A stretch of DNA of 64,000 nucleotides from a bacterium (GTDB taxonomy: Bacteria > Patescibacteriota > Patescibacteriia > JAACEG01 > JAGUWE01), in contig JAZDOD010000010.1 of the NCBI GenBank assembly GCA_043798995.1, positions 845-64,844 on the forward strand, written 5' to 3'. The stretch's first letter is position 1, and every line of letters begins with the position of its first letter. The notes below the pieces were generated by a model. The model had not been told where the DNA came from. It saw nothing but the letters and a program-made list of their open reading frames with translations, and made no database searches. A program made the position numbers and the translations under genes. Positions 16,942 to 34,022 of the stretch are shown here, piece after piece.

Positions 16942-16994
16942 AAATTTAAAATTATTTTATTAAATTATTACGAGTTTAGCGAGTTAGCGGGTTT

Positions 16995-17381
16995 ATGAAA
17001 ATAAAAAATTTTGAGGATCTGAATATTTGGAAGTTAAGCTTAAAAATAACCAAGGAGATTTATGACTTAACTTCTAAAAGCGGTTTTTCTCATGACTTTG
17101 CTTTGAGAGATCAGATAAGAAGAGCCATTATTTCTGTTAGTTCTAATATCACGGAAGGATTTGAAAAAAATAACAACAATGAATTCATTCGTTATCTTAA
17201 AATCTCAAAAGGATCAACTGGCGAGGTTAGAAATCAACTTTATATCGCCTTGGCGGTAAATTATATTACTCAACAAGAATTTGAAAAGGTTAATCAAGAA
17301 TTAATATCTTTAGCCAATCAGATCGGGAAGTTTATTAGTTATTTAGAAATAAGAAGAAAATTAACCCGCCAAACCCGTTAA
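16995..17381 (+). CDS. Four-helix-bundle protein (23S rRNA intervening-sequence protein family, TIGR02436-like), copy 1
   Basis: 'DQIRRAIISVSSNITEGFEKNNNNEFIRYLKISKGSTGEVRNQLYIA'. The gene is flanked by inverted repeats at 16972-16994 and 17363-17389. Confidence 0.75.
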   Translation: MKIKNFEDLNIWKLSLKITKEIYDLTSKSGFSHDFALRDQIRRAIISVSSNITEGFEKNNNNEFIRYLKISKGSTGEVRNQLYIALAVNYITQQEFEKVNQELISLANQIGKFISYLEIRRKLTRQTR

Positions 17382-17452
17382 ACTCGCTAAATAGATTAAT
17401 AAAAGGAATAAATTTTAATTTTTTATTTTAATTTTACCTTTCCATTATTTTA

Positions 17453-17461
17453 TGTTATAAT
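17453..17461 (+). promoter_or_regulatory. Extended -10 promoter element 'TGtTATAAT' upstream of pilA
   Basis: The sequence 'tatgTGTTATAATgtgg' lies about 55 bp upstream of a strong RBS 'aggaaggggg' and the pilin start codon. Confidence 0.5.
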
Positions 17462-17517
17462 GTGGATAACTAATTAAAATGAAGAATTAAAATTCTTAAC
17501 AGGAAGGGGGTGAAACA

Positions 17518-18051
17518 ATGTTAAAAAAGAAAAAAGGTTTTACTTTAATTGAATTATTGGTCGTTATCGCTATTATTGGTATTTTATCAACCTTAGCCAT
17601 TATTGCCTTAGGCAATGCCCGCGCCAAAGCCCGAGACGCCAAGCGTCTTTCCGATGTCAAACAGCTTTCTACCGCCTTAGAGATAGCTGAAACAACCAAT
17701 CCCGGAGCTAGTTTAGCCTGTCTCGGCCGTGTTATAACAGACAATGGTGTAGCCACAGATACTTGCACCGATTTAACCGAATCCGCTAATGGCGTAGTTT
17801 TAAACTGGGATAATTTTTATGATCCTTCTTGCTCTCCTACTGCTACCCCTGCTTGTACCACTGTTTGCTCTACTGCTGCTCCAACAACAGCGTGTATGTA
17901 CTCAGTAAATCTTGGTGCAACTGTTGCGATGACCACTGCTAATTACAATATTTGTTTTCGCATGGAACAAACCAGTAGTGTAGGTGGCGCCGGTCTTTAT
18001 AAGATTTCCACCGGTGGCAATATTTCATCGGGTTGTACCGATTTACCGTAA
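17518..18051 (+). CDS. pilA: Type IV major pilin (prepilin with class III signal peptide)
   Basis: 'KKGFTLIELLVVIAIIGILS' is the prepilin cleavage/methylation motif. There is a strong Shine-Dalgarno sequence and a terminator downstream. Confidence 0.9.
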   Translation: MLKKKKGFTLIELLVVIAIIGILSTLAIIALGNARAKARDAKRLSDVKQLSTALEIAETTNPGASLACLGRVITDNGVATDTCTDLTESANGVVLNWDNFYDPSCSPTATPACTTVCSTAAPTTACMYSVNLGATVAMTTANYNICFRMEQTSSVGGAGLYKISTGGNISSGCTDLP

Positions 18052-18132
18052 CATGTTTTTTACTTTGTCGCCTGCCGGCAGGCTGGATTTTACAAAGGGA
18101 AAAAACAAAAAAGCAACCGGATTTAATAAAAC

Positions 18133-18165
18133 AAAAACTTCTCTAAAAGAGAAGTTTTTGTTTTA
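18133..18165 (+). terminator. Rho-independent terminator after pilA
   Basis: 'aaacttctct-aaa-agagaagttt' stem followed by 'ttgtttt'. It is preceded by a second palindrome 'gcctgccggcaggc' at about 18070. Confidence 0.65.
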
Positions 18166-32234: not shown

Positions 32235-32280
32235 ATTCATAAATTCCAAATCCCAAGCACCAAATAACAAATAAATTTCA

Positions 32281-32646
32281 ATGACCGAAATTTCAAATTC
32301 CAAACCATACAATTTAGAAGAAAGAACTTTTCAATTTGCTAAAAAAGTAGCACTCTTTTGTAAAAAATTACCAAGAACTGTAAGTAACCTTGAATACGTT
32401 AAACAAGTAATTAGATCATCGGGCTCAACCGGCGCTAATTATATTGAAGCAAATGAGTCATTTAGTAAAAAAGATTTTAGATTAAGGATTAAAATTTGTC
32501 GCAAAGAAGCAAAAGAATCAGTTTATTGGCTGAGATTAATTATTGAAACCAACGACAAGAAATTTGAAAAAGAAGGGAAAGAGCTTTTAGAAGAAGCGAT
32601 GGAACTCAAAAAGATTTTTTCCGCAATTATTGAAAAATCAAAATAA
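32281..32646 (+). CDS. Four-helix-bundle protein (IVS-protein family), copy 3
   Basis: 'SSGSTGANYIEANESFSKKDFRLRIKICRKEAKESVYWLRLI'. Flanked by inverted 'aaatttcaaattccaaa / tttggaatttgaa' word repeats. Confidence 0.7.
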   Translation: MTEISNSKPYNLEERTFQFAKKVALFCKKLPRTVSNLEYVKQVIRSSGSTGANYIEANESFSKKDFRLRIKICRKEAKESVYWLRLIIETNDKKFEKEGKELLEEAMELKKIFSAIIEKSK

Positions 32647-32662
32647 TTTTTGTATTTGATAA

Positions 32663-33460
32663 TTGGAATTTGAATATTATTTGGAATTTGTAATTTGTAA
32701 TTTGGAATTTATGTTCGTTTGTATTTTGAGACATTTTAAAAGATATCCAGAGAGAGGCAATGTTCTCCTTTCCACCATCCTTATTATGGGCATAACGCTT
32801 AACATTGGGCTGGTGATAGCAACCTTAGCTTTAAGTGGTTTTAGTAGGGCGCGGAATATCAAATTGCAATCCTTGTCTTATTATGGGGCCGAAAGCGGCG
32901 TTGAATATAGTTTATTTAAAGTTAGGAAAGGTGGCAGTGAAATTGGTAATTTGAATATTAACGCCGCTACTGAATCTGGCGTCAGCTGGGAGAGCGCGGG
33001 TAAAATTTTTTCATTAGAAATTTTTGAGGATTTAGAAGAAGATAAATCAATCATTCTTTATCTTTATAATCCAGACACTTGGACCAGCGGCATCAATCGA
33101 TTGTTAATTAAGTGGAATGATACTTGTTATGGTAGTTCAGTTTTAGAAATTAAATATTATGAAATTAATGAGCAGACCGATTTAAACAATCTTAATTGGA
33201 CAGGAAAGATTACCAGAGAATGGATACAAGAAGAAACAACGCCACCTGGCACCATTGAAGATCTTTTTTTAAATTCCAACAATGCCTATGCCATGAAAAT
33301 TACAGTAAAAAATTGTTATGTTAATGTTTTAAACATTAACCCCCAAGTGTATAATTATACTACGGGTCAGTATGAAGAAACAAATATTAATATTGAAAAT
33401 GTTATTACCTCTACCGGTGCTTCGGGCGATGTCAAACAGACGATCAGGGTATCGATGTGA
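32663..33460 (+). CDS. Hypothetical membrane-anchored protein with a PilX-N-like hydrophobic N-terminus (probable start at 32711)
   Basis: 'ERGNVLLSTILIMGITLNIGLVIATLALSGFSRARN...YYGAESGVEY' resembles the PilX N-terminal domain. The remainder is Asn-rich with no recognizable domain. Confidence 0.4.
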   Translation: MEFEYYLEFVICNLEFMFVCILRHFKRYPERGNVLLSTILIMGITLNIGLVIATLALSGFSRARNIKLQSLSYYGAESGVEYSLFKVRKGGSEIGNLNINAATESGVSWESAGKIFSLEIFEDLEEDKSIILYLYNPDTWTSGINRLLIKWNDTCYGSSVLEIKYYEINEQTDLNNLNWTGKITREWIQEETTPPGTIEDLFLNSNNAYAMKITVKNCYVNVLNINPQVYNYTTGQYEETNINIENVITSTGASGDVKQTIRVSM

Positions 33461-33577
33461 AATTTTTAATTTTTAATTTTTAATTTTCAATTAAACCGGT
33501 ACTTTGAAATGGCCGGTTTTTGTGATACAATAACAACAAATCCAAAATCCAAAACTCTAAATACTAAACAAATTCTA

Positions 33578-33946
33578 ATGATTCAAATTCCAAATTCCAA
33601 ACGAAATAATAAATATGATTTAGAGGAAAGAAGTCTTAAGTTTGCTAAAAGAGTTAACGATTATGTTAATAAATTGCCTAAAACTATTCCTAACATTGAA
33701 AACGGTAAGCAATTAGTTCGCGCAGCCGGTTCAACCGGTGCTAATTATATCGAAGCTAATGAATCTTTGGGCAAAAAAGATTTTCAAATGAGAATCAAAA
33801 TTTCTAAAAAAGAAGCCAAGGAAAGTGGATTTTGGTTAGAACTATCCCAACCTTTAAAAGAAAATGAAAAAGAAAAACAAGATTTAATTCAAGAAAGCAT
33901 AGAACTTATGAAAATTTTTGGTTCTATTTTAGAAAAGTCAAAATGA
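33578..33946 (+). CDS. Four-helix-bundle protein (IVS-protein family), copy 4
   Basis: 'AAGSTGANYIEANESLGKKDFQMRIKISKKEAKESGFWLEL'. The ORF-track start at 33509 lies inside the left inverted repeat; the Met at 33578 gives a length like copies 1-3. Confidence 0.7.
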   Translation: MIQIPNSKRNNKYDLEERSLKFAKRVNDYVNKLPKTIPNIENGKQLVRAAGSTGANYIEANESLGKKDFQMRIKISKKEAKESGFWLELSQPLKENEKEKQDLIQESIELMKIFGSILEKSK

Positions 33947-34022
33947 AGAGTTTGTGATTTGAAATTTATGATTTAGATATTGTTTAGGATTTAGGATTTC
34001 GAATTTAGAATTTTAACTTTTT

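Follow-up and report, generated by a model that had tools for sequence, protein, structure and literature searches.

The window studied here, 64,000 nucleotides (64 kb) of contig JAZDOD010000010.1 from a member of the Patescibacteriota (assembly GCA_043798995.1), contains at 10.7–34 kb a type IV pilus cluster encoding a PilO-like protein, the PilB ATPase, a response regulator, PilC, the major pilin, the PilD peptidase and several pseudopilins, with LigA and then gatCA encoded downstream. Its PilC shares 75% identity with the protein of a metagenome-assembled genome (MAG) labelled 'Patescibacteria group bacterium' and about 50–55% with those of Falkowbacteria and Parcubacteria MAGs. Within this cluster lie four small genes for four-helix-bundle (FHB) proteins, all on the forward strand and each enclosed by its own pair of inverted arms; the unit of gene and arms is called a cassette below. 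Cassette 1 (16971–17391, open reading frame (ORF) at 16995–17381) lies between the genes for PilC and the major pilin; cassette 2 (20279–20732, ORF at 20286–20672) between two pseudopilin genes; cassette 3 (32238–32713, ORF at 32281–32646) between a 3046-aa ORF and a 249-aa ORF of the pilus cluster; and cassette 4 (33538–34021, ORF at 33578–33946, its start assigned from homology in preference to an ATG farther upstream, at 33509) between the 249-aa ORF and ligA. Comparative data described below indicate that the cassettes are insertions, and their design is that of the ORF-bearing intervening sequences (IVSs) of 23S rRNA.

The assignment of the four genes to the 23S rRNA IVS protein family, made earlier from the sequence alone, agrees with hidden Markov model (HMM) searches: all four products exceed the Pfam gathering threshold for PF05635 (E = 4e-32, 5e-26, 2e-14 and 4e-12 and 111, 91, 54 and 47 bits for copies 1–4; cut-off 33.8), and all match TIGR02436 (107, 100, 73 and 65 bits, respectively; cut-off 24). 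A six-frame HMM scan of the 64 kb revealed no fifth PF05635 copy. The four proteins are divergent, copy 1 being only 17–23% identical to the other three, and they share the motif Q-x6-S-x3-N-x2-E and a later E; Q40, S47, N51, E54 and E77 are invariant in 19 sequences from the candidate phyla radiation (CPR), cyanobacteria, Bacteroidota and one alphaproteobacterium, and an R two residues past the Q is found in most members, not all. By sequence similarity only, in a profile search of the PDB, two solved structures come nearest, 2GSC and 2RLD, and both depositions contain five chains. The Avd proteins of diversity-generating retroelements (DGRs) are placed in or near PF05635, DGRs are common in CPR bacteria, and the family is mentioned in a review of these retroelements (PMC10053308); the four genes might accordingly be taken for Avd-type accessory genes. 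We find this hardly credible, since no reverse transcriptase domain was detected in the approximately 44 window ORFs scanned (those outside 705–6923 and 23094–32234), the PDB profile search returned no Avd entries besides the two structures named, PHROGs gave no match to the FHB proteins and PADLOC a single marginal one (copy 2 against REase_II, E 0.004), and the four copies are dispersed; no template or variable repeats turned up in the ORF scans, which included no dedicated search for them.

Imperfect inverted repeats of 25–56 nt, 71–80% complementary, bracket each of the four genes, as the sequence-only reading had proposed. They pair 16971–16995 with 17362–17386 in copy 1 (25 nt, 76%), 20281–20329 with 20684–20732 in copy 2 (49 nt, 80%), 32238–32281 with 32670–32713 in copy 3 (44 nt, 77%, with a second pair at 32288–32309 and 32675–32696) and 33538–33593 with 33958–34013 in copy 4 (56 nt, 71%). 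The low complexity attributed to these arms is real, but its specific form, according to Tandem Repeats Finder, is that of tandem repeats with a period of 7, or of 8–9 in copy 1. The 5' arm of cassette 1 (16971–16995) consists of 8–9-nt units of the CGAGTTTAG type, and its 3' arm (17362–17391) takes in the last codons of the ORF; a possible outer AT-rich extension is present at 16939–16967 and 17397–17425. In cassette 2, the 5' arm (20279–20330, AACTCAA ×7.6) spans the ATG and the first ~14 codons, and the 3' arm (20684–20732) is of the TTTGACA type (×4.3). Cassette 3 has a 5' arm at 32238–32309 and a 3' arm at 32649–32713 (TTTGTAA ×9.4), which overlaps the start codon (ATG at 32711) of the gene that follows; the arms of cassette 4 are composed of AAATCCA and CAAATTC heptads (33538–33601) and of TTTAGGA and TTTAGAA heptads (33947–34021). 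Thus, the four cassettes have four arm vocabularies, and the earlier statement that arm sequence differs from copy to copy holds, with two corrections to the words that had been listed: the downstream word of copy 2 is cttttgagttttga, not gttttgagttttga, and 'aatcctaaa' is present in copy 4 solely in complementary form, within the 3' arm. Likewise, the repeats encode the first codons of the ORF in copies 2–4, but the last codons only in copy 1, and not both ends of every ORF as had been suggested.

The common plan is therefore an ORF of ~120 aa whose start codon lies within the 5' arm in copies 2–4 (the arm covering the first 8–14 codons) and at its 3' edge in copy 1, followed by a 3' arm that is the complement of the 5' arm and begins at or just past the stop codon; the 5' arms are A/C-rich in this operon, and a cassette encodes no recombinase of its own. 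In three of the four cassettes, the stop codon of the upstream gene is no more than ~4 nt from the start of the 5' arm, copy 1 being counted by means of the weaker outer AT-rich repeat. Two further candidate marks of a cassette were discarded: the missing Shine–Dalgarno sequence, because only 5 of 40 host genes have one, and co-orientation with the neighbouring genes (~80%), which is uninformative because almost all genes of this genome are on one strand.

The same architecture was found in homologues. Similarity to copy 3 served to fetch 80 metagenome loci (numbered with the prefix L), to which further loci were added, and 77 non-redundant cassettes were analysed. Homologues of copy 3 number thousands at 60–83% amino-acid identity, in many CPR phyla and beyond, and those of copy 1 nearly a thousand; a single-sequence search at E ≤ 0.001 yielded ~14,900 representatives of 50%-identity clusters. 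A common layout is a 5' arm AAGCACCAAAT..CAAATAACAAATAAATTCCA followed by ATGACCAAAATTCAAAATTC and, past the stop codon, GTTTTGGTCAT followed by ..TGGAATTTATTTGTTATTTGGTGCTT, with sub-types in which the words of the two sides are matched (CCAAA / TTTGG, CTAAA / TTTAG, CGAAA / TTTCG). Copy-1 homologues (L130, L140 and L145 among them) have other arm words, of the GAGTTAAC type, shared with cassette 1 and with a period of about 8, and a copy-2-like gene in L010 has the arms AAAATGAAAAA / TTTTTCATTTT. In the arms of the 77 cassettes, the lag-7 autocorrelation reaches 0.48 and 0.47 and the lag-14 autocorrelation 0.42, with most other lags at ~0.3; the lag-7 value of the coding regions is 0.26. A consensus of 59 homologous 5' arms has a mean information content of 0.5–0.9 bits per position, as compared with 0.25 bits at third codon positions and 0.11 bits in sequence outside the arms. 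Synonymous divergence (dS) is saturated in most homologue pairs, and dN/dS is ~0.26 where measurable; judged by these values, the FHB protein is under purifying selection. One copy-3 homologue (P0038) is located between large Laminin_G_3 proteins.

The cassette ends pair in the RNA minimum-free-energy fold of all four copies, with z-scores against shuffled sequences of -4.2, -4.4, -3.1 and -1.4 for copies 1–4. Raw duplex energy of the flanks was dropped as a control, since it follows GC content and other ORFs in GC-richer loci scored lower than the FHB genes (median -37.6 versus -34.4); z-scores normalised by dinucleotide shuffling were used instead. By this measure the 77 FHB cassettes have a median flank-pairing z of -2.4, with 55% below -2, versus a median of 0.0 and 7% below -2 for 76 other genes of the same loci (Mann–Whitney p = 6e-12); copies 1–4 of the window score -4.0, -2.2, -2.6 and -1.8. 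Whole flanks of 110 nt pair with their cognate partners (-35.9 kcal/mol) nearly as they do across cassettes (-31.2 kcal/mol), a test that discriminates poorly because the arms share vocabulary, and it was replaced by one on fixed 21-nt segments; here cognate arms pair more strongly than arms combined from different cassettes (p = 1e-4 and 5e-5), and for a control segment outside the arms, own and other pairing do not differ. The sense and antisense strands fold alike (mean -35.95 versus -36.84 kcal/mol, Wilcoxon p = 0.41); the G:U asymmetry that would mark selection acting on the sense RNA is therefore missing, a result that neither supports nor excludes an RNA role, and the arms may have a role at the DNA level.

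These measurements bear on a further explanation, namely that the repeats arose by chance or merely reflect what is general in AT-rich intergenic DNA (A-rich leaders, T-rich trailers and slippage-prone simple repeats), with no specific link to the FHB genes. Heptad arrays do occur in this window away from FHB genes (542–575, 33461–33492 and 45001–45043), and both the near-equality of cross-cassette and cognate pairing and the failure of raw energies to tell FHB genes apart from other ORFs where loci are richer in GC are what such an explanation would lead one to expect. Yet pairing normalised for composition separates the two sets of genes clearly, arms pair best with their own partners, homology between mobile copies gives out close to where the arms end, and the same design is built of purine-rich or GC-rich words in cyanobacteria, Bacteroidota and alphaproteobacterial rRNA, as described below; we therefore regard an origin of the arms by chance as very improbable. 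The array at 45001–45043, a perfect (AAATCCT) ×6 directly after the stop codon of the gene at 43847–45001, has no complementary array downstream; it could represent a lone arm of the 5' type or else a repeat that has recently expanded.

The parallel with rRNA IVSs, drawn before any search was made, gained support from a direct counterpart. In Azospirillum lipoferum p2 (L150), a PF05635 ORF (2456–2857) is located inside the large-subunit rRNA Rfam match (1292–4490) and is enclosed by the arms cagaggacggATGACAGAGGACGGAGGACAG and CCGTCCTCTGTCTTCTGTCATCCGTCTTCTG, in which ~7-nt words can be recognised by eye; the ATG is within the stem, in the 5' arm, which encodes the N-terminal residues. By this shared design, the intergenic cassettes are objects of the same kind as the ORF-bearing rRNA IVSs. 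In the window itself no rRNA, tRNA or other Rfam family reaches threshold, and among 20 homologue loci on short contigs none has rRNA beside the gene and one adjoins tRNA genes. Outside the CPR, arms were found around the FHB genes of Riemerella (AAGGTTC heptads), Nostoc sp. ATCC 53789 (GGGGAAA / TTTCCCC), Geminocystis and Stanieria. Two further cassettes interrupt CRISPR-cas operons: that of Anabaena sp. 90 pANA02 (L151, 1201–1569; CCTGTCA ×3) lies between cas6 and cas4, and that of Picosynechococcus PCC 7003 (L156, 601–957) between cmr2 and cmr3. Of the eight plasmid genes examined that lie outside rRNA, six have arms by eye and five have z < -2 (Picosynechococcus, -1.5). The literature on rRNA IVSs reports that the IVS of Coxiella has a 28-bp terminal stem cleaved by RNase III in vitro, and states the origin and mobility of IVSs to be unknown (PMC4990558).

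Evidence for insertion comes from related pilus loci. A syntenic operon of a related CPR genome (L009, a 716-kb contig) encodes, in order, PilB, the response regulator, PilC, pilin, PilD, three pseudopilins, a homologue of the 249-aa ORF and LigA, and contains none of the four cassettes, nor the 3046-aa ORF (23094–32234) and a DUF559 gene present in the window; the distance from PilC to LigA is ~5.5 kb there versus ~18 kb in the window. The syntenic loci L004, L006 and L028 also lack the cassettes where they overlap, and in 14 of 17 related loci with sequence past PilC, the pilin gene follows PilC at 4–364 nt. In the closest relative found (L001, that with 75% PilC identity), PilC is immediately followed by an FHB gene, but one of a different subtype, 46% identical to copy 2 and without a match to copy 1. 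Since L009 lacks the cassettes, and given the near-identical copies in unrelated flanks and the deletion derivatives described below, the four cassettes are, on this comparative evidence, insertions in the intergenic spacers of a type IV pilus operon that is conserved in other respects.

The same comparison bears on the idea that the heptad arrays are binding sites, in RNA or DNA, of a pentameric FHB protein that regulates itself or its pilus neighbours, the cassette being a regulatory module and not a parasite. Arm words follow the protein subfamily (GAGTTAAC for copy 1, CAAAT-NN for copies 3 and 4, TCAAAAC for copy 2), the arms are conserved where synonymous sites are saturated, the protein has the five invariant polar residues listed above, and 5–9 repeat units per arm stand alongside the five chains of the homologous 2GSC and 2RLD. 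Co-variation of subfamily and arm type, however, is also expected from common descent of the whole cassette; apart from the distant relative Avd, we know of no nucleic-acid binding in the FHB family; the flanking host genes are unrelated between loci; and the absence of the cassettes from related pilus operons means that they are not needed for pilus regulation. A purely regulatory module thus seems quite unlikely.

Signs of mobility, which the sequence-only reading had anticipated, were found in three metagenome loci (L081, L099 and L105) whose ORFs are 91–94% identical with no homology of the flanks. On the 3' side, homology stops near the terminal repeats GAAATCCCAAAT...ATTTGGGATTT; on the 5' side, an extra 15–35 nt of shared sequence extends beyond the repeat. 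An unambiguous internally deleted derivative, with both arms and the first codons kept, is present in L107 (3433–3596). The window has a gene-less forward-strand hairpin at 15591–15717, in the spacer between the response regulator gene and PilC, with the same heptad vocabulary (AAATCCGAAATCCTAA... / ...TTAGGATTTAGAATTTCGGATTT), a 5' arm that encodes the last codons of the response regulator, and a folding energy of -39.5 kcal/mol (z -6.6); going by its words and structure, it is probably a miniature derivative of an FHB cassette. Another gene-less inverted repeat (14997–15179, same strand) occupies the spacer from PilB to the response regulator gene; its arms of 36 nt, 78% complementary, are formed by 9-nt units of the CTAATTGAC type (×3.7) and their complement, with a small GC hairpin between them and no heptad vocabulary, and its relation to the FHB cassettes is uncertain. 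A breakpoint at the outer end of a 5' arm (AAGCACCAAAT; L048, 1–130, against L040, 3860–4000), where two contigs that are 100% identical through an FHB cassette and the gene downstream of it diverge fully, was not used as evidence, because an assembly chimera through shared arm sequence is possible there, as is a rearrangement at the cassette end.

The arms might work as DNA, as the terminal inverted repeats or ssDNA-extruded hairpins of a non-autonomous transposon moved in trans by another enzyme or by the FHB protein, RNA pairing being a by-product. This explanation concerns movement and is compatible with tolerance through RNase III; it accounts for the equal folding of the two strands, for arm sequence conserved above synonymous sites, for the ends of homology between near-identical cassettes in unrelated flanks, and for derivatives that resemble miniature inverted-repeat transposable elements (MITEs) in retaining both arms. 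In L030, L032 and L035, moreover, a Y1 transposase-like gene that is itself flanked by inverted repeats lies ~2.3 kb from an FHB cassette. Set against this are the lack of a transposase, integrase or reverse transcriptase among the scanned ORFs of the 64 kb, a target-site duplication that is not apparent in one three-way alignment, and the presence in one genome of four arm vocabularies, which a single trans-acting enzyme could hardly recognise by sequence; in addition, where this design occurs in rRNA, it is the RNA that is processed (PMC4990558). We consider the DNA-level explanation possible, though the less probable one. The Y1 transposase-like gene of L030 (6674–7372, downstream of the cassette) has an inverted repeat with z -6.5, the strongest outlier among the control genes.

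The reading that we favour, with moderate confidence, is that the four genes are IVS-type selfish cassettes in intergenic spacers, whose stems probably let RNase III cut them from host transcripts. On transcription of the host operon, the arms would pair into an imperfect duplex of 25–60 bp around the whole ORF; by homology with the ORF-bearing 23S rRNA IVSs, the paired stem would most likely be a substrate of RNase III, and cleavage would part the cassette RNA from the flanking host RNA. We propose that this separation is what makes an insertion tolerated in rRNA and in an operon alike. Cleavage of the cassette stems is probable by analogy with those IVSs, and the arms may also, or instead, be DNA ends or binding sites for a pentameric protein. 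We infer, too, an enzyme or mechanism that moves the cassettes. Insertions of this build suggest that the rRNA IVSs occupy one niche within a far wider family that appears to be mobile.

A number of observations weigh against the RNase III reading. The stems are imperfect (71–80% complementary), and copy 4 folds weakly (z -1.4). The equal folding of sense and antisense strands gives no sign of selection on the sense RNA in particular, whole flanks pair almost as well across cassettes as within them, and the arms are conserved in sequence besides their pairing, which a protein-binding or DNA-level role fits equally well. Inspection by eye of a single three-way alignment (L081/L099/L105) revealed no target-site duplication, although ragged low-complexity ends could hide short ones there, and no reverse transcriptase, transposase or integrase/recombinase was found in the scanned ORFs. 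Finally, heptad arrays also exist without an FHB gene in this window, and among nine examples from outside the CPR, two have no complementary arm pair (Nostoc PCC 7120 gamma and Calothrix PCC 7716).

A broader proposal can be offered tentatively, and we think it rather unlikely: that PF05635 genes with inverted heptad arms constitute one very large unrecognised class of autonomous or semi-autonomous mobile elements, with rRNA IVSs as one niche, in which a pentameric FHB protein recognises its own heptads as RNA or ssDNA and acts in excision, protection or re-integration. If true, it would provide a first function for 'S23p' and explain the origin of ORF-bearing IVSs and of some cyanobacterial heptanucleotide arrays. 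The origin, mobility and function of the ORF-bearing rRNA IVSs and of S23p have been open since the early 1990s (PMC4990558), and should cassettes enclosed by such a stem prove common among ordinary genes, those in rRNA become a special case of a general element. A search of the full-text literature yielded no description of stem-enclosed PF05635 genes outside rRNA, nor of heptad arms, though older reports might mention them. There are practical consequences as well. The cassettes split operons, pilus and CRISPR-cas operons among them, and may thereby cause spurious 'CRISPR-associated' calls for the PF05635 family; a figure legend in a large clustering study places '23S rRNA IVP' among CRISPR-linked genes (PMC10910872), an entry for which FHB cassettes within CRISPR-cas operons may account. 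Many homologues are on ~1-kb contigs, and the cassettes may break metagenome assemblies. Some intergenic heptanucleotide arrays are now tied to a specific gene, and cultured carriers (Anabaena sp. 90, Nostoc, Picosynechococcus PCC 7003 and Riemerella) make the question tractable.

Several other features of the region deserve mention. A promoter-like site with an extended -10 element at 33504–33531 is located directly 5' of the 5' arm of cassette 4, and this cassette may therefore sit in the leader of ligA rather than in mid-operon; a terminator-like hairpin was noticed by eye upstream of the cassette, at about 33493–33522. Similar promoter-like sites, also with an extended -10, are found at 17433–17461 (3' of cassette 1, before the pilin gene) and at 18173–18201. 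The latter precedes the DUF559 gene mentioned above (18377–18739), which encodes a Vsr-like endonuclease and is placed between the genes for pilin and PilD. On either side of it are direct repeats (18218–18374 and 18737–18848, 90–98% identical) that consist of GC-rich hairpins and, like the gene, are absent from L009. Together the gene and its repeats look like another type of selfish cassette within this operon. The 3046-aa ORF amid the pilus genes has RCC1-like repeats by eye. Downstream, the essential gatC gene (36305–36613) is enclosed between inverted copies of a ~145-nt GC-rich multi-hairpin element (36114–36259 and 36670–36816, 99–100% complementary), which could form a perfect RNA duplex of ~130 bp or permit the segment to invert; near 600–700 there is a related unit. 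Just upstream of the pilus cluster, a fused gene of the toxin–antitoxin type (9855–10700) combines a nucleotidyltransferase with a HepT-like (HEPN) part, and in L140 an FHB cassette directly follows a pair of separate nucleotidyltransferase and HEPN genes.

Among known systems, Correia (Correia repeat enclosed element, CREE) and ERIC (enterobacterial repetitive intergenic consensus) elements have terminal inverted repeats, are intergenic and are co-transcribed with their neighbours, and RNase III cuts the hairpins that Correia elements form in mRNA, with a change in transcript stability. The hairpin at 15591–15717 resembles such an element; unlike the cassettes, however, Correia and ERIC elements are generally known to have no ORF, many near-identical copies per genome, defined target duplications and no heptad arms. 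REPINs, as commonly described, are likewise long hairpins of two inverted units, non-autonomous and spread within genomes, and a Y1-type gene is near some FHB cassettes; any one genome, however, has REPIN arms of a single type, matched to one RAYT gene, whereas cassette arms differ within the genome and no Y1 gene was found among the scanned ORFs of the window. Avd is known to have a distantly related pentameric four-helix-bundle fold, but no reverse transcriptase was found beside the cassettes among the scanned ORFs, and the FHB proteins have no detectable sequence similarity to solved Avd structures. The cyanobacterial short tandemly repeated repetitive (STRR) sequences are tandem heptanucleotide arrays in intergenic DNA, and the FHB arms of Anabaena and Nostoc are such arrays (CCTGTCA ×3 and the GGGGAAA type, respectively); we know of no description of STRRs as inverted pairs around a gene, and the literature search found none. 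Integron cassettes similarly contain a single small ORF and a structured, sequence-variable recombination site and are inserted serially in a transcribed array, but attC is a single 3' hairpin that needs an adjacent integrase and attI, whereas the arms described here flank the gene and the scanned ORFs include no integrase. FHB cassettes share with MITEs and other transposons with terminal inverted repeats the marking of the limits of a mobile unit by such repeats.

The closest likeness is to the ORF-bearing 23S rRNA IVSs of Leptospira, Coxiella, Brucella and Haemophilus, which encode the same protein family ('S23p') and are of similar size (~430–500 nt); IVSs of this kind are located within a 23S or 16S rRNA gene, typically at helix 9, 25 or 45. 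In these IVSs, too, terminal inverted repeats around the ORF give a long stem, the start codon is in or at the stem without a good Shine–Dalgarno sequence, and a sporadic distribution is suggestive of horizontal spread. Unlike them, the cassettes of the window occupy spacers between protein-coding genes, so that excision would cut mRNA rather than fragment rRNA, and four divergent copies are present within one operon. On the ORFs scanned and the features compared, the cassettes are not Avd/DGR loci, integron cassettes or ordinary MITEs; as far as comparison of sequences can tell, they match every testable feature of an ORF-bearing IVS except location in rRNA.

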